Shown piece by piece: positions 3,264 through 64,000 of a DNA stretch of 64,000 nucleotides (the first letter of the stretch is position 1; each line of letters opens with the position of its first letter). A program made the position numbers and the translations under genes. Below the pieces are notes generated by a model that saw nothing but the letters and a program-made list of their open reading frames with translations, was not told the DNA's origin and searched no databases. This DNA is from an uncultured Mycoplasma sp. Lineage in GTDB: Bacteria > Bacillota_I > Bacilli_A > Mycoplasmatales > Metamycoplasmataceae. The stretch lies in assembly GCA_947039955.1 (NCBI GenBank), contig CAMRAC010000004.1, positions 47,344 to 111,343 of the forward strand. The letters run 5' to 3'.

Positions 3264-4432
3264 AATTTTCCTCTTTTCATTACTTGGTTAACTGGAGTTA
3301 TAGGTCTAGGAGTGAAATCAATATTTCCTTGCGCATTTATAATATCGCCAATTTTAACTTTATAAGTTCCAACAATACTCTGGTTATATTTTTTAGAAAA
3401 TATTTCAATATTAATTTCAGTATCATTTGAATAACCTTCTAGAATTATTTCTGGACTAGGAGCAATAACACCAATTCCAAATTCTGATGAGAAATCATCA
3501 TTCATTGAAATTCTTAAGTTTTTGAATAAATCTTGAATATTAATCGGTGTTCCATTTCCTATCAATAAAGTTGGTTTTATGTTTTCAATTAAAAGGAATT
3601 TTAAATCATTTTCAAGATCAAGATACTCCCTGGAAAAAGTATCAATATTAAACGGGTCTAAAGTATAAATGCTTCCTTCTCCAAAAATAATATCCATTTT
3701 AACTATACCAACAATATTTGGCAAGCTATCAACATCTTGAGTTATATCATTAATAATTATTTCGATATCTTGCAAAGCAACAGAGTTAAATTTATTAACC
3801 ACAACAGTAGTAACAAAGTTTTTAAATCTATTAATAAATGCTGTTTTTAACTCAGGAACCATTAACGCAGGAGTTAGTACCATGATGCCTTCGCTATTTT
3901 TAACCAAAACTTTTTCTGTAATATCAAGACTGTGAGATGTTTGGTTAACTCTAATTGAAATATCATTAATTAAATCCGATAAAAATTGATCTTTAAAATA
4001 GACTATATTAACTTCATCTTTAAAAGCTTGTTCAGACATTGCCCCTATTTTAAATGAGTTATTAACTACATTTTCACTTATCATAAAAGAGTATGTACGA
4101 TAAATTGTTGAATCTAATTTCGAAGAAACTTTAACATTGACTTTGTTGTCAACAGAAGCTATTAAAGGAATTTCAAAATTTACAATTTCATAAAGTAATT
4201 CTTCGTTATTCAATTTATCAAAGTTAACTAAGTTCTCTTTTATTTCATTGATGTTTGTATCTTTTGTCAAAGTAATTACAGGAGCAATTTTCTTTTCGGC
4301 AGCTTCATTAACCAAGAACTTTTGTTGAGTAATTTGTTCTGAAGTCAAGGGAGTGTTAGAACATGAAATTAAAGCTATGCTTGGTAATACAATAGCTGAT
4401 ACAACTGCTAAAGGTAAATATTTAAATTTCAT
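3254..4432 (-). CDS. Lipoprotein (unknown function)
   Basis: MKFKYLPLAVVSAIVLPSIALISCSNT carries a lipobox. The track stop at 3260 is TGA; read as Trp, the true TAA is at 3254. The 3' end overlaps the next lipoprotein start. Confidence 0.75.
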
Positions 4433-4434
4433 AA

Positions 4435-5205
4435 TTATATTTTCCTTGCTTCAAAAATCTTGATTGGTAATTCAATTGTCACGATTTCTTCGGGAGTTCC
4501 CTCAGAAGAAGTCCCTAATATAAAATCAAAAATAATTTGATCATTAAAATGACTATTAAAAAGCATATGAATATTTTTTTGATAACCATCAAAAATATTT
4601 TCATTAATCTTTGAACTTGTCAATCTGTCATTTAAAGGTTTTGGATCAGTTGTTAATTCATCAATATTAATTGCTTCTTCTGTAGAAAAAATACCAACAC
4701 CTAGAATTGCATCAGTTGCAAATCTTGAAATATTAAATGTGTTTTCTAAAATTAACCGATTAAGAGTGGTAGTAAGATTTGCAGAATCAACAGAAACAAT
4801 TGTTTTACCTTTTATTTGAGCAATGTCAGAAAACTTTATAGAATAAAAATCAGCAATTTCAGGAGCTATATCTAGAGTTGATATAGAAGTTACTTTGAAT
4901 CAAATATCAAGGTCTTTTTCTCCTAAAATAGGAAGTTCAATTTTGTGTAAATCTATTAAAAAATCATCTGTTGAGTGCTTAGGAGCGACAAATTTACTAA
5001 CTTGCCCTAAATAATCAGATAAAGAAATTTGATCTCCTGTAGGAGTAACACTTAATGTAGGAAGTGGTTTCTTCGCAACTATTTCCTTAATTATTTCTCT
5101 AGCGGCCGTTATTCTGCTTTCATCGTTATTTTGTGAACATGAAATTAACGTTAACGGAAGAATTAACGGTAATGGAGCACCTAAAATAAATAAAGATTTT
5201 TTCAT
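4435..5205 (-). CDS. Lipoprotein (unknown function)
   Basis: AAAGGAG lies upstream of the ATG at 5205. MKKSLFILGAPLPLILPLTLISCSQNN carries a lipobox. Track ORFs 4900-5223 and 4435-4623 share one frame and are joined through TGA. Confidence 0.75.
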
Positions 5206-5292
5206 AAAACAAACTCCTTTCAAACACTAATAATTTATTAATAATTTTATCATTTTTTGAGTATAATTTTAAAAATAAAGTTTAAAAGAACT

Positions 5293-5691
5293 TTGAAAGA
5301 TGGGATTGTTTTGTACGCTTTTATAATAATAACCAATAAATTGAACTTCTCAAACTCTGTTAAAGATTATTTTGTTTCAATGTCTCCAGTTAATTTCAAC
5401 AATACAAAAATTTTTGTTTTTGGTCTTGATTCAACTAATGAAAATGAAATTGTCAAAGAATTAAAACAAATAATGATTGAGAACACAAAGGTTAAAAAAG
5501 GATTTATTTTTTCAGATTTTGGAGACTCACTACTTACTTCAAAAATTATTGAAACTTCAATTGAAAATACATTCTATTCAAAGGGTTCGTTATTAGAAGC
5601 TGGTTTTTTAGCTTTTACATTAATTAATGGTGGCGCACCAATTGAATCAATTATGATGTCAATGAATAGAGAACTTACAAAAAATAATTAG
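5293..5691 (+). CDS. DhaM / PTS EIIA(Man)-like domain protein, apparently lacking the phospho-His
   Basis: GFIFSDFGDSLLTSKIIETS...LLEAGFLAFTLINGGAPIESIMMSMN resembles the DhaM segment MMDMGSALLSAE...PLVEGT. The N-terminal IIITNK occupies the place of IVSHS. The start is uncertain: a TATAAT at 5262-5267 argues against the track TTG at 5257, so I chose the in-frame TTG at 5293. Confidence 0.45.
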   Translation: MKDGIVLYAFIIITNKLNFSNSVKDYFVSMSPVNFNNTKIFVFGLDSTNENEIVKELKQIMIENTKVKKGFIFSDFGDSLLTSKIIETSIENTFYSKGSLLEAGFLAFTLINGGAPIESIMMSMNRELTKNN

Positions 5692-5695
5692 TAAA

Positions 5696-6463
5696 TTATT
5701 TTTCTTCTTTTTCAGCCATTATTTTATCAATTTTTTCAGTTGTTTTAAAACTAATTTTTGCCAAAGAATATAAAGCTTTACGACCATAAGTTTTAACAAA
5801 GTCCATTGCAAATTTTTCAACAGTTTCATTTGTACCTAATGGTGTTTTCATATCAAGTTCTTCATCTTGGTCTTCCATCATTTTTAAAAAGTGGTATCTA
5901 CCAATAACTGAAGCTGCAGCAACAGATACGTGTTTTGATTCAGCTTTCTCTAACAACATAACTGGTTTAACAAATGAATCAGCTGTTAATTTTCCACCAA
6001 CTAATGATTCATAATATTTAACAATACTTGCTTCAGTGCTAAATTGATCAATAATAGTCATATCACTTTTAACTTTTAACTTTAATTCAAGATGGTTAAT
6101 TGACTTAATATGTAAAAACATTTTCAATTCATTTGCATTCATATATTTGTTTAAGTTATTGTAACCTTTTTGTGTAAGGTGATTAACCCTGAACACTACA
6201 AGATCTTTCAACATAGGGAAAACTTCAATAATTTTCTTGTCAGTCATTAACTTCGAGTCAGTAACTCCAAGTTGTTTAATTTTTTCAATATTTTCAAATT
6301 CTACAAAAGCAGCACAAGCTACCAATGGAGTTAAGTAATCTCCAACTCCAGTTTCATCTACACCAATAATACTTTTATTATCAAAGATACCATTTGTAAA
6401 CTCTACAAATTTAATAGGTTTTACCTCTATTTTTTTTACTGATTTTGCTACGGGTTTTGCCAT
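5696..6463 (-). CDS. rnhC: Ribonuclease HIII/HII-family protein
   Basis: Motifs GVDETGVGDYLTPLV, LGVTDSKLM, IIDQF and KAESKHVSVAAASVIGR match the RNase HII/HIII catalytic core. Confidence 0.6.
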   Translation of the reverse strand: MAKPVAKSVKKIEVKPIKFVEFTNGIFDNKSIIGVDETGVGDYLTPLVACAAFVEFENIEKIKQLGVTDSKLMTDKKIIEVFPMLKDLVVFRVNHLTQKGYNNLNKYMNANELKMFLHIKSINHLELKLKVKSDMTIIDQFSTEASIVKYYESLVGGKLTADSFVKPVMLLEKAESKHVSVAAASVIGRYHFLKMMEDQDEELDMKTPLGTNETVEKFAMDFVKTYGRKALYSLAKISFKTTEKIDKIMAEKEEK

Positions 6464-6507
6464 TTTTATTCCTTTAAACTTATAAAAAAGTTAATTTCAT
6501 TATATTA

Positions 6508-7395
6508 TTATTTTTCTAAATTGTTAAGAAATTTAATAATAAAGTCTCCAACACCACCTTCTTTGTTAGTTAATTCAGAGACAAATGTTGCCGATTTTTT
6601 AACGAGAGGATCTGCATTTGCCATAGCAACAGAATTTTCTACAACTTTTAACATTGATATATCATTGAATCCATCTCCAATAGCAACGGTGTTAGTAACT
6701 TTAATGTCATAAAATCTCAATAATAATGAAATAACTTTAGCTTTTGAAACACCTAAAGCTGTAATGTCGAAAATTTTTGAACTACTCCCACTTTTACTTC
6801 AGTAATTAAATTCTGCCAAATCTCCATACATAATGTCAAGGTATCTTTTTAAATCATGAGCACTTTTAATGTGACTGTTTTTATCCTTCTTCATTTCTTC
6901 AAAATTAATATCCAAAATCACACTAATAGGTTTTAGAGGAATTCTTGCCAAATCAATTCCTTCAACAAATTTGGGAAGTTTGTTGAATCCAAATATTTGT
7001 TCTAGTTCTGGATTTCTATGTTGTAATTGGACTCATCCCGGTCCTTCTATTGCAAAGTTCTTTGTAATTTTTTTCAAGTACTCATCTCCAACAATGTAAA
7101 GCATTTCGTTTAAATTAACATATCTAATGTAATCAATAAAAAAAGGATCACAAGGATTATGAATGTGAGCACCATTTATATTTCCAACAATAGTATCTAA
7201 TTCTAATTTTTCATATATCTCTTTTGTAGAGACTCATGGTCTACCTGTAACAATTGAAACGATGTGTCCCTGTTCTCTTGCCATTTTAATACCTTCAATA
7301 GTTCTTGGGTGAATTTCATTATTAAGGGAATCCGATAATACAGTTCCATCTAAATCTATTGCAAATAAATATCTTTCTTTTTTTGACATGTTCAT
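6508..7395 (-). CDS. Cof-type HAD-IIB phosphatase
   Basis: ATG at 7395 gives MNMSKKKERYLFAIDLDGTVL... The protein continues SIVTGRPW... and ends ...AIGDGFNDISMLKVVENSVAMANA. Fragments are joined through several TGA codons in one frame (888 nt). Confidence 0.8.
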
Positions 7396-7469
7396 CACTC
7401 TCCTTTAATAAATTAACGTATAATAATTATAAAGAATAAAATGAATCATAACCATATATAATTAATTTT

Positions 7470-20173: not shown

Positions 20174-21466
20174 ATGAAACAAAAATATATTGATTCGGAA
20201 AACAAACCAAGTATAAATAAAAAATTAAATGTGTTCGAAACATTCTCCGGGATAGGTTCGCAGCACAAAGCCTTTAAGAACGCTTTTGATGAAAGTAAAT
20301 TTGAGATTGTGGCTACCTCGGAATGAGAAATTTACGCAATTATAGCTTATGATGCCATTCACCATGGTCCTGTAAAACAAAAGTCCTTAAATACTCTTTT
20401 AAATAGGGGGGGGGGGATTGTTTCGGTTGAAGACTTATCCACATTCCTTTCTCAATATTCTTTTTCAAAAAATGGTGAAAAAGAAACTGATATAAATAAA
20501 GTTATTAATAAAGAATTAGAACTTGCTCAAAGATTAGCGGTTGCAATGATTAGAAATAAAAATATTGGTAGTATTTTAGATTTTGATAAGATAAAAATCA
20601 GAAATAACATTAATTTATTAACTTATTCTTTTCCTTGTCAAGATTTATCAATAGCAAATATGGGGCGCGGAACCGGTATGGCTAAAGGTGCTGAAAATCG
20701 TTCAGGACTACTTTGAAAAGTGTCTAATATTTTAGAATCATACACTCCTGAAGAACTTCCTGAATTTTTGTTGTTGGAAAATGTACCCAATATGCTTTCA
20801 CAAAATCATAAAAAAGATTATGAAGAATGAGTAAATTATCTTGATTCAAAAGGTTATAAAACAGTCACAGAAATTTTGGATGCAAGACATTATGGAATTC
20901 CGCAAAGCAGAAGAAGAGTTTTTGCGATTTCTTTCAATATAAATAAATTAAATATCAATGATTTTGAAGATATTAAAACAAGGTATAAAAAACACTTAAA
21001 AGATATGGAAGATAATTTTATTTATGAAAAACCAAAAAAAGAAGTTAATAAAGTTTTAAACAAATCTTTTTTATCTCTTGATAAACATGAAGACGAAGCT
21101 TATTCTTGCTTAATGAAAGATACCCCATCTAGAGTAAAAATGGTCCAAGACAACAAAGATTTGTTAGATCCTAATTTGACTTACTTTAGAACTTTAACTA
21201 AAAAGCAGGACAGAAATCCTAATGTTGGTTTTGTTACAACTAACTTTTATAAGGAAGATTATTTAAAAGAAAGATTTATTACTCCTAGAGAAGCTTATAA
21301 AATTATGGGCTTTACAGATAAAGATTTTGAAAATACAAAAAATGATTTATATAAATTTTCAAAGGAAAAATATTATAGCCAAGCAGGAAATTCAATTGTT
21401 GTTAATGTTTTGGAAGCGATATTCAAATTTGTAATGGAGGTGTGAGATGAAAAAAATAGGAAATAA
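20174..21466 (+). CDS. DNA (cytosine-5)-methyltransferase (Dcm family)
   Basis: Motif I is VFETFSGIGSQ, motif IV is SFPCQDLS, motif VI is LLENVPN, motif VIII is QSRRRVFAIS and motif X is AGNSIVVNVL. Read with TGA as Trp, the frame is open from 20174 to TAA at 21464 (430 aa). Confidence 0.9.
20406..20416 (+). repeat. G11 homopolymer inside the methyltransferase coding sequence
   Basis: aaataGGGGGGGGGGGattg encodes N-R-G-G-G-I and is in frame in this sequence. Confidence 0.95.
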
Positions 21467-21977
21467 ATTTTCAAAGATAGGGACAAACCCGCATAAATAT
21501 GTTGAAAATTATAGATTATTATTTTTGAACATAGGCAAACAAGAAATATTAAAAATCAGGAGAGAAGATTTCTCAATAACGCACAACGGAGTAGAAGTCA
21601 AGAGTTTTGGAAGTGATGCAACATTTAGACAAAATATAGATTGTTGAGTGGGCTTAGGTCTTTTCATAAAAAAAGATGATAAACTAGTTAAAGTTTTTGA
21701 AAATATGAATGAAAGTGATTTTTATGAATATATCAGAGGAATTATATTGGTACAGTCAAACAATGAAAAAATAAATGTTTATAGAGACACAATAATAATA
21801 AAATTAATGAATTTTTTAGGGCTAGAAACTATTGAAAAATACAACCTTTCTTGCAGGACTAAATGTATAGTAAAAAAAGATATTGATGAAGAAACTGGTA
21901 AATTTGAAAAAGAATTGCTGAATGATAAAATGCTAAAAAGTATTTTGAAAATAATATGGGAGAATAAATATGAATAA
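21447..21977 (+). CDS. Hypothetical 176-aa protein (weak PD-ExK-like motif)
   Basis: The ATG at 21447 lies inside the last 20 nt of the methyltransferase gene. Track ORFs 21447-21647 and 21648-21977 are joined by one TGA. The segment ..RREDFSITHNGVEVKSF.. gives D41-x8-E50-x-K52. Confidence 0.6.
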
Positions 21978-23856
21978 ATTAACTAAAAAGATAGACGAGA
22001 AAGATTCAGATATAACCATTGACAAAGCTTTATTAATAGAGTGACTTGATATGGAAGGTAAAGTAATTATTATTCCAATTTACCAAAGAGGTTATTCATG
22101 AGAAGTTGGGCATATTGAGACATTATTTGAAGATATTGTGAACAGAATGGAAGATGATTCTTCTCACTATTTTGGAATAATTGCCGGAAAAAATATAAGT
22201 GGTTCAGGTCCGGGTAAAAAAAATATAGTCAAAATAATTGATGGTCAACAAAGATTGACTAGTTCTTTTTTATTTTTTTGTGCAATTAGGGACATTATAT
22301 TAGAAGAAGAAATAGGCAATATTATTGATTATAAAACTTTATCAAAAATATTAAAAATAAATTCAAAAGAAAAAATTGAAGAATACTTCTATAATCCTGG
22401 AGGTCAAACAGACTTAAATGAAGCATTTATAAAAATTTTAAAAGGTGATTTAAAAGATATAAAGAAGAAGAATAATTTTTATGAAAATTATTTGAAATTT
22501 AAAGAATTAATTCAAAATAAACAATTTAATTTTGAAGAATTAAATCAATTAATGAACACATTTTTATATAAATTTGAAATTGCTAACATATTTTTTAAAA
22601 CAGATAAAATTTCAAATAAGAAAGAAATGGAAATTTTTGAAAACTTAAATTCAAAAGGCAAGGAATTAAGTTCTGAAGATTTAATAAAAAACTTTATTTT
22701 TAATCTTTGTTCCGATGAATTACTTGTAAAACACGATGAAGATCAAATAACTCTTATTTTTCACTCATCTATTACAGATGAATTGGGAGAAGGTAAATTG
22801 ACTGGTAAATTTTACAAAAGCTTAATCCAATATAATATAGGTACTGAGTTCCAGGACAATAGACAAATTCAATTAACTGAATTCAAAAAAGTGGTTGAAA
22901 ATATATTTAATATTGATATGAATGAAGAAATAAAGACAATAAAAGAATATAAAAAATTATTAAATGAAATTAAAGATTATGCAAAAATTTTCTATGATAT
23001 TTCTAAAGAAAATAGAAAAAAAATAGTTTCTTGATTGGGTGTGGAAAAAATAATCATCCTTTGTAATGAAGAAAGTAAATTAAATCTATTTGCCGGATTA
23101 ACATATTTGATGTTTGAATTTTTTAAAAGACAAGATAAATATGATGTCAACGTCCGTCTTCCTGAAGCAACTCAAAAAGATATTAAAAGAATTTACCTAA
23201 CAATTATGAAAGCAATAACTAAAAACTGAGTTATTACAAGGCGTGGTGATTCTGGTTTTAGAAGGATGATTTTAAAATCTATATATTTAGTAAGACAAGA
23301 TTTTTTGAATGATTTAAAAATTACACTTCAAACAATAGGAGAGAAATTAAAAAAATATATTGCTGACGGATTAAATAGTGATGAAGAATTTAGGTCATCT
23401 ATTATAAATAATAGTGATGCACACAAATCAATTACATGACTTCTTATATTAACAGAATGAGAAATGAGTGATTGATTAAATTCTGGACAATATATTGATT
23501 ATAAATCTCCTTCTATTGAACATATATTACCTAAAAACTCTGACCTTTGAGAAGAAGAAATGATACAAAATTCAGAATATAATATGGAAGAATTTAGAAA
23601 AAACAAAGAAAGAAATTTAGAACAATTTGGTAATTATTTTATACTAAACAAAGAGAAGAACTCCTCTGTAGGCAATATTATTTTTTCAAAAAAACAAGAA
23701 GGGTATAAAACAAACACATCACCTTTATATAACAATCCTAAATATCCTGATATTGATATTTCTAGAAAAACATCATGAGGATTTAAAGATATTCAAAAAC
23801 GTACTGACAAACTTATAAACTATATTTGTGAAAGCGTTATTAAAGACAACAATTAA
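21970..23856 (+). CDS. DUF262 + DUF1524 protein (GmrSD-like type IV restriction nuclease family)
   Basis: N-terminal motifs are IIPIYQRGYSW, KIIDGQQRLTS and FENLNSKGKELSSEDLIKN. C-terminal motifs are SIEHILPKN...FGNYFILNKEKNSSVGN. Four track fragments share one frame (1887 nt, 628 aa) with only TGA between them. Confidence 0.85.
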
Positions 23857-55806: not shown

Positions 55807-56451
55807 TTAAATTTCAAGGTTTATTTTATAAAGGTCACCATCTTTTTCTTTAAAATCAACATTTCCTAATTTTCTAGCTAAAGCAATAATGAATTTTTTA
55901 TAAGGAATTTTTATTGTCAAGTATTTCAAAGTACTTTTAAAGCAAAAATTTGCTGTATTACCCAAAACAATAACATCATCAATAAATACAAAAATATTTA
56001 TTTTATTTTGATCTGGCATCTTGCTAATTGATTCGAATGACTTAACTTCATCAATTGAAGGACGTGTTTTGTCTCCGTTACGAGTGTAATAATCTATTGC
56101 ACATGTATAATAAAAAATAATATTTTTATCAATTTCTATAATATCTTTTTCAAAAGATAAAATTGTATTATTTTTATGACTCGACCTCTCATTGCAAGTT
56201 TCAGACAAAGCATCTTGGTGTTTTGAAGGCGGAAAGAAAACAATTATATTATGCTTTTCAGGTGTATATTTATTAATTATTTTTTTAATTCTACTAATAA
56301 AATCTTCATATAATTCAGGAATTTCGTTCTTAATAATCCTTGCGTATTCCGTTTTATTATTTTGAAGCTTTAATAAATGATAGTTTTTATTTTCTTCTCC
56401 ATCTTTAAATTTATATCATGCGCAAGCTTGTGTTAAGGGAATGTCACCCAT
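55807..56451 (-). CDS. Phosphoribosyltransferase (PRTase)-like protein, 214 aa (ShosT-like or ComFC-like)
   Basis: The PRPP-loop-like motif is NIFVFIDDVIVLGNTA. I translated 56209-56451 codon by codon. The ATG at 56451 shares one nucleotide with the upstream TAA. Confidence 0.65.
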
Positions 56452-57332
56452 TAATCAACCTCTACTAAGTGTTTCAATATTTTTTCTGTTCAAGAACTTT
56501 TTTTCATAAATTCTAAATTATTTTTATAAACTTCACTCGGCAATTTAATTGTATTGTTTGTTAATTTTTTTGAAACTTCATACATTTGAGATAAAGTTCC
56601 TGATTTATTTTCAAAAAATAAAACATATGTTTCAAAAGATATTTGGGCCATTCATTTATTTCTTTCAATAAAATAACCCTTATAATAATTACCTTTATCA
56701 AAGGGCGGCAAACTATACAAAATAGTTCCTTGTTCCCTTGCATAATTAATGATTTTCTCTTGTTGAGCATTAATTTTATTAGTTATATCAACTCCTGGGA
56801 AAATTATTATTTTTTGATTATTTTTTATTGCATTATTATGAGCAATAGTGTCAGCTCCTTTTGCTAATCCTGAAACAATTATTTTATTTTTAGGAACATT
56901 CTTTTCAACTCATGATTCCATATTTTTATTAGTTTTTCTAGATCCCACAACTGAAACATAATCTTTATAATTTTTTTGCAAAAACTCTAATTGTCCTTCA
57001 TAAAAAAAGAATAAACTGTTTTTTAATTCACCAAAACATTCAAATAAATGAAAATCATCTTTTATGATACTTTTGATATTTTTCATTTCTAAAATAAATA
57101 TTATTGATTTTATTCTTTCTTGAAAATAAGATAATTTAATATTTTCAAATAATGTTATATTTTCAGTTATTTCTTTTTCTTTTTCTTTAATAAAATTTTC
57201 AAAATTAACACCTATTAATTTGTTGAATTTTGTTATCGTCATATCTTCTTTATCTTGTTGTTCTAAATCAAATAATGCATAATATTTAGCTATAAGTTCA
57301 TTTCTATTTATTTCCATATTAATATAATACAT
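56451..57332 (-). CDS. DprA/Smf-like (SLOG fold) protein, 293 aa (ShosA-like)
   Basis: ..YVSVVGSRKTNKNMESW VEKNVPKNKIIVSGLAKGADTIAHNNAIKNNQKIIIFPGVDI...FIERNKW .. matches the DprA Rossmann core (VGSR...SGLA.G.D..AH...G.D..FxxRN). The frame was followed by hand from 56910 to TAA at 56451. Confidence 0.75.
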
Positions 57333-58275: not shown

Positions 58276-58557
58276 ATGCCAAGAGGTTTATATCACAATG
58301 ATGCAGAGCAAGCATGAGATGATGCGGACGAATGCAATTGCGAAGCAGGTGATTGTTACGAAAACAATCATAAAGAATGTGGATTATGTACTGACCACAT
58401 TCTCTATGGTTCTCATGAAAGCGTCATTGGACAACAAACTAGTTATTATAGATGAAATATTGATCATAAAAAAGCAACTAGCAAGAACGGCAAAAATATA
58501 AGATCAAATAGACATGCCGTTCATGTTTCATGCAACCAAGAAAAAGCCGATAATTAA
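58276..58557 (+). CDS. Small HNH endonuclease-family protein, 93 aa
   Basis: AAAGGAGG lies before the ATG. MPRGLYHNDAEQAW DDADECNCEAGDCYENNHKECGLCTD...YYRW NIDHKKA...HAVHVSCNQEK shows a Cys cluster plus HNH motifs. Confidence 0.8.
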
Positions 58558-58566
58558 ATATACTAT

Positions 58567-58597
58567 AAAACCCTAAACTAATTTGGGTTTTATTTTG
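58567..58597 (+). terminator. Terminator-like hairpin after the first HNH gene
   Basis: aaaaccc...gggtttt followed by attttg. Confidence 0.55.
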
Positions 58598-58691
58598 TCA
58601 ATAATTAATTTTAATTGTAATTGAGAAATAATCTCATTTTTTAAAATTTGAGTATATAATTGGAATTGAGTCAGATAAAAAAGGAAGTCAC

Positions 58692-59876
58692 ATGATTTTA
58701 AAATACTCTATAGAAAACTTTAAGTGTTTTCAAGAAAAAGAAACAATTAACTTTAAGGCGAAGAAAATTTCTGAAAGTTTTGATACTGAGAGTTATTTAC
58801 TATTAGATAATGATATTTTGCCAATCATTTCTATTTATGGACCTAATGGAGGTGGAAAGACATCCTTTATTGAGTCTATTTCATTTTTAAAAAACATTGC
58901 GCTTGGAAGCGATAAAGTAAATGGAATGATTCTTCATTTTCTAAAAAATGAAAAGAACGTTTTAAAAGATATTAAATGGGAAATTGAGTTTACTTCAATA
59001 GATAAATCTGTATACCGATATGTTTTGCATTATAACAATGCAATCACATTTGAATCTCTTTTTAAAAAAAATGATCTAATTTTTAAAAAGAATAAAGATA
59101 ATGTTGAGTTTTGCAAGGAAATTCTTGAAAGTAATATAAAAATTGAAAATAAAGCAAAGGAATCATCAATGTTACAATTCATAAACTCTATTTTAAACAA
59201 TGAAGATATAGCCATAGTTATTAGAGAATTTAAGAAAATTAATTATCTTGATTCGTCTGAAGATATAACTATCAAACACACAAACGGAGTGCCGGAGTTG
59301 GATTTTGGAGATATTAATTTTATAAAAAATAAAAAGGAGATCTTTATAAAAATTTTTATAGATTTAGACATAAATATTCATGATTTAGAATTTTATGAAG
59401 ACCCATTTAACCCCAATAATATTAAGATATGATCTGTAAAAAAATCAAGTTTTGGGAGTGTTTTTAGAATCCCTTTTTTTGAAGAATCAAAAGGAACTAT
59501 GAAGTTATTACATTTGATGACCTACTTTATTAAAGGACTGATAAATAAAGAATCTTTTATAATTGATGAATTAGATTCTGCATTGCACACAAAATTATTA
59601 AAGTATATTATCAAGTTGTTTAATTCAAAGGAAATGAACAAAGAATCACAATTAATTTATACTTCGCACGATATGCCTACTTTAAATAAAGAAAATTTTA
59701 GAAGAGATCAAATTTACTTTTGTGCAATCAATGAATCTTACTTTTCCAACATTATATCTTTAAAGGATATTGGCGCTAGAAATGATGATAAGTATTATAA
59801 AAAATATCTTGAAGGTAAATATGGATATGACCCTTATATAGATTATTCAATCAAGGCTTTTGATGGTAAAAAATAG
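58692..59876 (+). CDS. AAA-type ATPase (AAA_15/21-like, OLD/AbiLi/PtuA-like), 394 aa
   Basis: Walker A is IYGPNGGGKTS and Walker B is FIIDELDSALH. The track fragments are joined by one TGA. Confidence 0.8.
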
Positions 59877-60465
59877 CGGTAAAACCTTAAAAACTTCCGT
59901 TATTTGCGAAGGAGAAACGGACAAATGATTTCTTAACTTTTTGAAAACTAATTTATATCAAACAAGGCAACCAGTCTGCAAAGAACACTCTCAAGTGATT
60001 TACGGAACAATTAATTTAGCAAATATAAAAAAGAAGATTGAACGTGATTGTTGCAGAGCGTTTTATTTTTTTGATAAAGATGAAATAAGAGAAGGTATGT
60101 TGCAAAAGTTGAAAGATAAAATAAAGGAACAAGGAGATACTTGAATATTTTTTAACCCACAAATGGAATTGTGTTTATTAGCAATATTTGAGAAACACCA
60201 CGATTATAAACTAGACAAAAAAACACTTGAACAAAAACTTACAAAACATATTAATAATAATAATATTTACAAAGATAAATATGATCATAAGCCAGAAATA
60301 TTACAAAAAATATTATTACATCTTAAAGAAATAGTTAAAGATGACAAAAACGATTATACATTATTGCAATTTGAAGAAAATTTACAACATTATAATTCCA
60401 ATAAGTATTTACACACAAACTTGATAGAATATATAAATCACTTAAAAATGAAAAGAGAGAACTAA
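59863..60465 (+). CDS. RloB-like (Toprim-like) protein, 200 aa
   Basis: The ATG at 59863 overlaps the ATPase 3' end by 14 nt. The N-terminal TSVICEGETDKW FLNF matches the RloB motif (CEGE.TE..YF). Three fragments are joined by TGA. Confidence 0.7.
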
Positions 60466-60466
60466 A

Positions 60467-60748
60467 ATGGCGGAAATAAAATACAACGAAGAAATAGAAA
60501 CAATATGAGAGAGTGCTCCTTATTGTAATTGTGAAAAAGAAGACTGTAAGATAATTGAACATCGTTTGTGTGATATTTGTTCTAAGACAATCTTGTATGG
60601 AGCTCATGAAAGTATTGAAAGCCAAAGAAACAACCCCGGAGCATGAAACTTTGATCAAATCATTGCCAAGTCTAATGGTGGTGGAGATGGTATCTTAAAC
60701 CTGCAAGCTGTTCACATTAACTGCAACAGAGATAAAACTGATCAATAA
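60467..60748 (+). CDS. Small HNH-family paralogue, 93 aa, with DH replaced by DQ
   Basis: MAEIKYNEEIETIW ESAPYCNCEKEDCKIIEHRLCDICSK...GAW NFDQIIAKSNGGGDGILNLQAVHINCNRDK. It has the same length and Cys pattern as the gene at 58276-58557. Confidence 0.7.
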
Positions 60749-60768: not shown

Positions 60769-60800
60769 ATATTCAATTAGTTAATTAACTAATTGAATAT
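60769..60800. promoter_or_regulatory. 32-nt perfect palindrome
   Basis: atattcaattagttaa|ttaactaattgaatat. Confidence 0.9.
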
Positions 60801-60832: not shown

Positions 60833-61069
60833 ATGACAACAGAACAAAGAGAACAATGAAACAAGGATTTATTATCTTTGACTAAAGATAAGCAAACCGC
60901 CACTCTCTTCTTTAAACAAACCAGTACCCCTTTAACCAATGTAACATGTAGTTCTTGTCCATATGAATCATCTATGACCTTAGATGATGAACAAGACAAG
61001 CTCAACAACGCTTTTTATGGCACCATGTTTAAAACATGCGCTGTTTGCTTCCTTAAGAACAATCATTAA
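60833..61069 (+). CDS. Small Cys-containing protein, 78 aa (possible zinc ribbon)
   Basis: MTTEQREQW NKDLL...VTCSSCPYES...KTCAVCFLKNNH has a CxxC...CxxC arrangement. It is in frame with track ORF 60878-61069. Confidence 0.5.
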
Positions 61070-61314
61070 CGACTTGTTAATGATTTGAGTCTTGTTTAGA
61101 TTTCAGAGGTAAAACATTGAAACCACAATATAAAATTGTTGGCTCATTTTTTTATTACATAATACATTAAATAATTATGTATAATTTTGAGTATATATTT
61201 GTTGTAATTATATTAAACAAATAAAGTGCTAAAAACATTAAATATTATTGTGAATAAAATTTTTCTAAAACTGATTTACTAGGTTTTAAGAAAAATACAA
61301 AAAGGTAGGTATTT

Positions 61315-62627: not shown

Positions 62628-64000
62628 TTATTTATCTTCATACATTTTAATAATAATTTTTTTTCTAGATTCTAAAAACTTTTCATAACTTTTCTGATTT
62701 ATTCCATTGTCCAAAATAGCTTTATATGACGCCTCTAATTGTTTAGCTAATTCAGAATCTTTACTTTTTCCTCAAATATAAATTTTGTCAGAGTAAATAT
62801 ACTTCATTTCTATCAAATCTGACTTGTCTCTATTTTCTTCTTTAGTTATTAAAGATAAATTTGCGAAAGAAGAAATTCCCGTGTTGATATTTGCGGCCAA
62901 TAGTTTAGCCTTGGGTATTAAATGATCATCTTCAAAAAGAAGATCATCATTATCACCAAGAGTTAAATCTTGCATGAATAAATATGCCATTAGTGTTCTA
63001 GATTTTTTATCAAAAGTTTTCCCTTTATTTTTTAAACTTTCATAATAAAAGTTTTCTATTGTGTTCTTAATAGCGTCATTTTCCAAATCTTCTAGATACT
63101 TATTTTCTTTTATATAATTGAAAGCCGTTTTAGAAGAACTAGTTTCAAATGGTTTGGAAAGCAAATCGTGAATGTAGTGTTTCATAAACATCTTTTTATA
63201 TTTATTAGCAAAATCTGTATTAGTCATTTCTCCAAACAAATAAGACCCCTTATAGATATTACCCAGAATAACAATAATGTATGTTTTGTCTGGCAAAAAA
63301 GCCCCTGAATTATGTTCTATTTTATTTCCTTTGTAGTTATGAAATAGTTTGAATATTAAATCAAACCTTTCTATACAATCATGAAAACTTGATATTATTT
63401 TATCAACATCAACAGCCTTTTTTACCAATTTCTTAAATTCACAACCAATCTGATTATCGGTAAAGTTTAATGTTTTTTCAAAATCATTTTCTTTTTTTTG
63501 ATATTCAAAAATAATATAAATTTTAATTAAAATTATCAACGATGGAATGCCTGTTATATTTTGATTTGATGCTTTTTTTGTAGATTTTGTATCCTCTTTT
63601 CCAGAAAAAGTTTTTGAAATATGGTTAGTTCAATTCTTAGAAAATAATTCTTCAAATATATACCAAATAACATCAAAAGGAGAAAGTTTTTCTACTTTTT
63701 CATATTTAAAACCAAAAGAATTCTCGATAATAATGTTTAATTTTTCTTCAATTTTTTTTGATATTTTTTTATAAGTAAAATCCATTTCAATTATTGATCA
63801 TTGGCTTTTTCATATATCAGAATTATCTAATTTTACACCTTTTGTGTTTATTAACTCGAATAATTTAGAAGATTCTTCAGCAGAACCATAGAAAATTGTT
63901 GAAGATAGAAGATATTCATCTATACCTAATTTAAATGAACTAATTTCATGAATTTTTTGTAAAACTTGGGTTGTAAAATAATAGTTTAATTCACAGTTTA
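62628..64000 (-). CDS. Second DUF262/DUF1524-like protein; N-terminus beyond the window end
   Basis: ..LINTKGVKLDNSDIW K.. is a DUF262-type motif. ..DDHLIPKAKLLAANINTGISSFANLSLITKEENRDKSD.. is a DUF1524 His-Me motif. The track stop at 62772 is TGA and the true TAA is at 62628. Confidence 0.7.

Follow-up and report, generated by a model that had tools for sequence, protein, structure and literature searches.

Gene content of the locus

We analyzed a 64-kb stretch of contig CAMRAC010000004.1 from an uncultured Mycoplasma sp., which is called the window throughout, and in which a first-pass annotation had described a four-gene cassette encoding a small HNH protein, an AAA ATPase, an RloB-like protein, and a second small HNH protein. 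These genes are named HNH1, AbiLi, AbiLii, and HNH2 here (Table 1). AbiLi, AbiLii, and HNH2 form a tightly packed, co-directional unit that extends from a −10-like element to a hairpin, and we regard the locus as a probable three-gene variant, specific to Mollicutes, of the AbiL abortive-infection/defence system.

The window has a G+C content of 23–31% and the gene content of a Mollicutes chromosome, including ribosomal and translation genes, lipoprotein arrays, and ndk. Open reading frames (ORFs) were compared under translation table 11 and table 4 (TGA = Trp). Under table 11 the region was broken into short ORFs, and the four genes were readable only with genetic code 4; ORFs of 100 aa or longer added up to 12,098 aa with table 11 and to about twice as much, 24,136 aa, with table 4. 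All four previously annotated ORFs were recovered under code 4, and their coordinates bear out the reported 14-nt overlap of the ATPase and RloB-like genes, which relatives have as well. Only one base lies between the AbiLii stop codon and the HNH2 ATG. The locus occupies a variable defence island bounded by ndk and a conserved Exo_endo_phos gene, and the content between these two genes varied among the window and the related loci L001, L004, and L008.

Table 1 Features of the AbiL locus in the window.
Feature	Position	Strand	Description and basis
HNH1	58276..58557	+	93 aa, code-4 ORF; small Zn-HNH protein, solo-type subclade
Hairpin and U-rich tract after HNH1	58560..58598	+	Likely intrinsic terminator; RNA fold
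TATAAT −10-like element	58655..58660	+	Putative promoter of the AbiL-HNH2 operon; read from sequence
AbiLi	58692..59876	+	394-aa ABC-type (AAA_21) ATPase; PADLOC and Pfam
AbiLii	59863..60465	+	200-aa divergent RloB/Toprim-like protein; PADLOC and motif alignment
HNH2	60467..60748	+	93-aa small Zn-HNH protein, third gene of the operon; Pfam HNH and family hidden Markov model
Perfect 32-nt palindrome/hairpin	60769..60800	n/a	Likely operon end; inverted repeat, RNA fold

The core pair is AbiL

The AbiLi protein matched the PADLOC AbiLi model over residues 1–389 (E = 7e-65). Its next-best PADLOC matches were AriA (3.3e-20) and, at just 0.036, PtuA, and it also matched Pfam AAA_21 (1.3e-20). The Walker A (YGPNGGGKTS), Walker B (FIIDELD), and H-loop (TSHD) motifs were intact. 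The AbiLii protein matched the PADLOC AbiLii model (1.8e-6) and carried the motifs CEGETD and FFDKDE. We aligned the window AbiLii with those of eight other Mollicutes loci and with 14 canonical second genes of ~225 aa from non-Mollicutes AbiL loci. Throughout this alignment, in the Mollicutes proteins and in canonical RloB alike, the Toprim-type EG, DxD, and EL motifs were kept, and 15 of 17 aligned AbiLii relatives matched Pfam RloB (best 2.2e-40). AbiLii had no AriB/DUF4435 match in Pfam or PADLOC, and a search of PDB sequences with the AbiLii profile returned nothing meaningful. Judged from these profiles and motifs, the core pair is AbiL (AbiLi/AbiLii), a split OLD-like pair of ABC ATPase and Toprim/RloB protein, in agreement with the earlier AbiLi/AbiLii (RloA/RloB) assignment.

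The Mollicutes AbiLii proteins all carried a C-x2-H ... CC motif (e.g. PVCKEHS ... RDCCRAF), which canonical RloB proteins lack and which may be a clade-specific zinc site.

A rare family of small zinc HNH proteins

HNH1 and HNH2 are the paralogues that the first-pass annotation took them for, with 39% identity (BLASTP, E = 3e-23). A family hidden Markov model (HMM) found only two matches across the window, HNH2 (1.6e-35) and HNH1 (7.8e-32). A word-indexed protein search returned the query itself and one relative with 69% identity, and such searches yielded two to seven family members at most. Searched exhaustively with the HMM, 1.84 billion protein representatives gave ~70 matches, of which ~50 were full-length at 80–110 aa. 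A profile search of genome contigs with a three-sequence HNH alignment found no relative, and the 39-member family alignment was too diverse for pattern-based locus scans. One candidate member, the 2137-aa protein P0157 with six matching stretches, was rejected as a Cys-repeat false positive. As delimited by these homology searches, the small Zn-HNH family is real but rare.

Residues C20, C22, H32, C35, C38, W60, N78, and C86 were invariant in the 39-member alignment. Position 83 switches between His and Cys across the family, so H83 is predicted to be a zinc ligand rather than the catalytic His, and catalysis in the family is assigned to H64 (of W-N-x-D-H), N78, and N87. The first-pass annotation had read the two proteins as degenerate in complementary ways, HNH1 by its SNRHAVH motif and HNH2 by a D-Q in place of D-H. 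This reading fails for HNH1, which has H64, N78, N87, and every family-invariant residue; its SNRHAVH motif is not degenerate, since N78 is kept and other members show NRQAVH or NRRAVH. Loss of a catalytic residue is confined to HNH2, where N78 and N87 remain but position 64 is Q (H64Q). The substitution was seen in all contigs encoding the HNH2 protein. Among AbiL-linked HNHs it was unique to the window, the remainder having D-H or E-H, which suggests a lineage-specific change. More widely, the general-base His was missing in about 10 of the 39 family representatives (Y, L, N, or Q at position 64), all of which kept their zinc ligands, and non-catalytic members thus seem to recur in the family.

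Against Pfam HNH (cutoff 21.4 bits), HNH2 scored above the threshold with 25.1 bits and HNH1 below it with 16.9 bits. The generic models HNH, HNH_5, and HNH_4 were matched by 30, 19, and 12 of the 39 members, respectively, while models for PtuB, Cas9, and type II restriction endonucleases gave weak family matches. An AlphaFold model of HNH2 (pLDDT 86.9) superposed through residues ~35–93 on the Gme HNH protein 4H9D (root-mean-square deviation 1.7–2.2 Å), McrA, and Cas9 HNH domains, and its closest viral structural matches were phage HNH proteins of ~100 aa. The best PDB sequence match of the small HNH was the ZRANB3 HNH domain (6e-5). From the alignment and the predicted structure, the small HNH proteins have the HNH (beta-beta-alpha-metal) fold with the zinc-knuckle ligands C35, C38, H/C83, and C86.

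HNH2 is linked to AbiL across Mollicutes lineages

A scan of species-representative genomes with the AbiLi alignment recovered 80 AbiL loci, eight from Mollicutes and 72 from other bacteria, and the family HMM was run on the six-frame ORFs of each locus. A family HNH gene lay directly after AbiLii in all eight Mollicutes loci, whose ATPases were 36–70% identical to that of the window, and beside none of the 72 non-Mollicutes loci. Individual look-ups of ATPase homologues added L004, L007, L008, L014, L114, and Mesomycoplasma moatsii (CP146987), and the AbiLi-AbiLii-HNH order was the same in each. With duplicates collapsed, 14 distinct Mollicutes-type AbiL lineages remained, and 13 of them had the triad. 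The junction between AbiLii and the HNH gene ranged from −26 to +14 nt (12 loci), and ATPase identity among the triad-bearing lineages was just 33–80%. No conserved or tightly coupled third gene was found in the non-Mollicutes AbiL loci. A distance tree placed the AbiL-linked HNHs in one broad clade.

Several loci retained the arrangement in decayed form. In the close relative L001, whose ndk is 95% identical at the nucleotide level, AbiLi and most of AbiLii are deleted; what is left of AbiLii (residues 137–200) directly adjoins the HNH gene, and L001 therefore descends from a triad-bearing ancestor. In L008/L032 (4472–6033), a frameshift interrupts AbiLi near residue 107 and residues ~57–129 of AbiLii are deleted in frame, with both flanking HNH ORFs open, and AbiLii is also split in L014 and L038; assembly error is possible in these four loci.

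By conserved gene order, HNH2 is a third gene of the Mollicutes AbiL operon, and the HNH gene is evidently co-inherited with AbiLi and AbiLii across Mollicutes lineages. The linkage that the first-pass annotation proposed between its flanking HNH genes and AbiL in related loci therefore stands for HNH2 (13/14 lineages) and largely falls for HNH1 (2/14). The M. moatsii triad (L112, 3501–5533) lies between GyrB/ParE-type and topoisomerase IV/GyrA-type genes, an unusual site for a defence operon.

The TATAAT element lies ~32 nt before the AbiLi ATG and is a putative promoter element by its match to the consensus; a TGAGTATATA(A/T)T element resembling it precedes the next plus-strand gene (61183–61201). 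At the other end, the palindrome begins 21 nt past the HNH2 stop and is a 100% complementary inverted repeat, with a predicted folding energy of −14.6 kcal/mol (z = −3.5) that was equaled by none of 200 shuffles. It was kept with compensatory changes in L004 and L007 and was lost in L001. The palindrome may bind a protein or act as a terminator that lacks a U-tract, and it likely marks the end of the operon.

HNH1 is probably a separate transcription unit

An orthologue of HNH1 was found only in L008/L032, so that an upstream copy occurs in two of the 14 Mollicutes-type AbiL lineages. In both the window and L008/L032, HNH1 adjoins the same divergently transcribed 215-aa gene and DprA-like gene. 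HNH1 and its L008 orthologue branch apart from the AbiL-linked clade and are closest to solo-type members, with 50–56% identity to these and 39–40% to HNH2. The L008 HNH1 lacks the invariant W14 and the zinc ligand C35, while the L008 HNH2 is intact.

HNH1 is preceded by a strong ribosome-binding site. The terminator that had been noted after it was found as a hairpin with a 9-bp stem (−10.1 kcal/mol, z = −2.85, 2 of 200 shuffles as stable) followed by a U-rich tract; a simple terminator scan missed it because the loop exceeds 8 nt. DNA repeats neither flanked the cassette nor joined the HNH1 and HNH2 genes, and a recent duplication giving rise to the two copies was accordingly rejected.

The rarity of HNH1, its own terminator, the separate TATAAT element of AbiLi, and the hairpin that closes HNH2 together indicate that the conserved unit has three genes with HNH1 as a neighbor. 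As read from these signals, HNH1 is probably a separate transcription unit outside the conserved operon, and it is most likely an independent small nuclease gene beside AbiL rather than a fourth subunit. The four-gene cassette of the first-pass annotation was not upheld: besides being found in 2/14 lineages and having its own terminator, HNH1 belongs to a different subclade, that of solo members on mobile elements and in defence islands.

Family members away from AbiL

In four loci (L015, L016, L024, and L025; ~3700–7400 in each), the HNH gene was flanked on one side by the gene for a MobV (Mob_Pre) relaxase and on the other by that for a TraG/VirD4-type coupling protein, which places these solo HNHs on Mollicutes conjugative or mobilisable elements. 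Other solo members neighbored ThsB-TIR, type I HsdR, DUF4143 ATPase, or methyltransferase genes, and in Spiroplasma syrphidicola a family HNH gene stood beside a methyltransferase and a PycTM gene. Two variants lacking catalytic residues sat after dinB amid housekeeping genes. Tandem arrays of two or three diverged HNH copies were seen in L019 (4902–6086) and L020–L022 (~4880–5730). One of the tandem copies in L019 lacks the YGAHES segment.

The ratio of nonsynonymous to synonymous substitution rates (dN/dS) of HNH2 was 0.06 for L001 versus L004, 0.09 for L007 versus L008, and 0.11–0.26 for other pairs; that of HNH1 was 0.31.

Neighboring genes and other defence-like clusters

A 78-aa Cys-rich ORF (60833–61069, plus strand; CxxC...CxxC) downstream of HNH2 was 86–92% conserved in L001, L004, and L007, far more than the adjacent AbiL genes, and had no family match. 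We rejected it as a fifth component, because none but the closest relatives have it and the conserved hairpin lies between it and HNH2. Farther downstream, a GmrSD_N-type gene (62628–64000, minus strand) runs past the window end; it encodes 618 aa in L002.

Upstream of HNH1, the DprA-like gene (55807–57332, minus strand) matched PADLOC ShosA (2e-26) and Pfam DNA_processg_A (1.6e-22). The 214-aa ORF after it has a phosphoribosyltransferase-type loop for binding phosphoribosyl pyrophosphate (VFIDDVIVLGNT) and no HMM match. In sequence features, the two genes look like a Shosta-like defence pair, and this pair was conserved together with the 215-aa gene and HNH1 in L008. A second defence-like cluster, at 20174–23856, forms a local plus-strand island and encodes a C-5 cytosine DNA methylase (1.5e-50), a 176-aa ORF without assignment, and a GmrSD_N + GmrSD_C protein (4e-33 and 4.8e-13).

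A probable three-gene AbiL variant and its alternatives

Several observations weigh against HNH2 being part of a three-gene AbiL system. The window AbiLii alone did not reach 0.01 against Pfam RloB, which makes it a divergent member of that family, and in L113 a methyltransferase gene comes after AbiLi-AbiLii, with neither an HNH gene nor a remnant of one. The neighbor-joining tree of the HNHs, built on ~90 columns, is weak. Pairwise identities of AbiLi and HNH showed no rank correlation (Spearman 0.02), and the Pearson coefficient of 0.42 was driven by close relatives, so the co-evolution test lends no support. The sequencing runs that contain the locus were DNA only, with no RNA runs found. 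AbiL lay within 5 kb of just one of 13 clear metagenomic family members (L014). Moreover, the HNH gene was under strong purifying selection where AbiL had been deleted (L001) or pseudogenised (L008), and thus the HNH protein can function alone.

This last point is the main argument for regarding the small HNHs as autonomous proteins that are merely co-located with AbiL, as defence or anti-plasmid nucleases or as mobile cargo, with their spacing reflecting expression piggy-backing. The solo members beside MobV and TraG/VirD4, ThsB-TIR, type I restriction-modification, and methyltransferase/PycTM genes are in keeping with this explanation, as is the existence of AbiL without HNH in L113. We nevertheless consider it unlikely, given that in 13 of 14 deeply diverged lineages the gene has a constant position and orientation and a start/stop overlap with AbiLii, that the AbiL-linked copies form a clade of their own, and that the absence of family members from all 72 non-Mollicutes AbiL loci argues against general defence-island clustering. 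Insertion of homing-endonuclease remnants beside AbiL is highly improbable. HNH is a common homing-endonuclease fold, and small phage HNH proteins are the nearest viral structures; but these are single domains of 93 aa with no DNA-recognition domain, intact, conserved, and under purifying selection (dN/dS 0.06–0.26), without flanking repeats or an intron or intein context, and their position is stable across lineages whose ATPases share 33–80% identity.

A true four-gene cassette would have both HNHs work with AbiL; one possibility is a heterodimer, with intact HNH1 compensating for the impaired H64Q copy. The two copies lie 2 kb apart in the window, the HNH1-AbiLi-AbiLii-HNH2 bracket is kept in two lineages (the window and L008/L032), and the diverged tandem paralogues of L019–L022 raise the possibility that paralogue pairing is a theme of the family. 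The arrangement is very doubtful, however, since 12 of the 14 Mollicutes-type AbiL lineages have no HNH1, and the gene falls in another subclade and has its own ribosome-binding site and terminator, with a separate −10 element for AbiLi. In both lineages HNH1 travels with the upstream DprA/215-aa genes, and in L008 it is HNH1 that has lost W14 and C35 beside an intact HNH2, the opposite of a stable complementing pair. A broader conjecture joins these themes: the HNHs would be an unnamed Mollicutes-restricted family of plug-in nucleases, one branch of which became an obligatory AbiL subunit, giving the first ABC-ATPase defence complex that controls both a Toprim and an HNH protein, with heteromers of live and dead paralogues (HNH1 with HNH2(H64Q), or the L019–L022 pairs) gating or tuning cleavage. 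We regard this synthesis as unlikely.

On the three-gene reading that we prefer, a mechanism can be proposed by analogy with PARIS and Septu. The ABC ATPase would serve as infection sensor and as a scaffold that keeps the nuclease effector or effectors inactive. A phage trigger would then release or activate the Toprim and HNH proteins, which would cut DNA or tRNA, and the outcome would be a dual-nuclease AbiL. As the Toprim protein keeps its catalytic residues, the HNH protein would be an added second nuclease rather than a replacement, and the start/stop coupling of its gene with that of AbiLii points to co-translation and, probably, to a complex of the proteins. In the window itself, H64Q at the general-base position probably leaves HNH2 catalytically impaired, and the protein may retain only a structural or binding role.

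Significance and comparison with known systems

AbiL has been described as a two-gene system of ATPase and TOPRIM protein with unknown mechanism and grouped with PARIS (PMC13064643, PMC11464382), and we found no publication in the searched literature that gives AbiL or RloB an HNH partner. The AbiL core is thus known in kind, and the three-gene variant is apparently undescribed. Reviews only assume a PARIS-like mechanism for AbiL, and an ATPase-Toprim pair that stably acquired an unrelated second nuclease offers a natural experiment that might reveal the signal sensed by the ATPase and the way in which its effectors are restrained and freed. The variant also bridges two branches of AAA15/21 defence ATPases, AbiL/PARIS (Toprim) and Septu (HNH), and the analysis defines an unannotated Zn-HNH family that recurs in Mollicutes defence islands and conjugative elements. 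Immune repertoires of Mollicutes are poorly charted, and code-4 genes are easily missed by standard pipelines. M. moatsii, a cultured species with a complete genome that has the triad, is a possible test organism.

The closest known systems are AbiL of Lactococcus lactis and RloA-RloB of Campylobacter type I restriction-modification loci, which have the same AAA_21 ATPase gene followed by an overlapping RloB/Toprim-like gene. AbiL has two genes, whereas the Mollicutes variant couples to them a third gene for a Zn-HNH protein of 90–100 aa. The Mollicutes AbiLii is also shorter than the canonical protein (~200 versus ~225 aa), lacks the N-terminal extension, and has the C-x2-H...CC motif. PARIS (AriA/AriB, class 4 OLD-like) has the same split of ABC ATPase and separate Toprim effector and is the best-understood mechanistic analogue; in PARIS, the ATPase scaffold frees the Toprim tRNase upon a phage trigger (PMC11464382). 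The Toprim partner here is of RloB type and not AriB/DUF4435, and PARIS has no HNH component.

AAA15/21 ATPases are paired with either TOPRIM or HNH effectors (PMC10440598), and Septu (PtuA/PtuB) likewise encodes an AAA15/21-type ATPase and an HNH nuclease effector in one operon. The resemblance to Septu raised in the first-pass annotation does not amount to membership, as the ATPase matched PtuA at E = 0.036 versus 7e-65 for AbiLi, and PtuB models matched neither HNH1 nor HNH2 at E ≤ 1 and five of the 39 family members weakly (~3e-4 or worse). Septu has no Toprim protein, and PtuB is not in this small-HNH family. With the minimal HNH nucleases (4H9D and small phage HNH proteins), the C-terminal ~60 residues of the family share the beta-beta-alpha-metal core and the CxxC...HxxC zinc knuckles. 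The family differs from them in its N-terminal helix and CxC...C...H knuckle, which are family-specific, in its lack of a terminase or phage context, and in a sequence identity below 30%.

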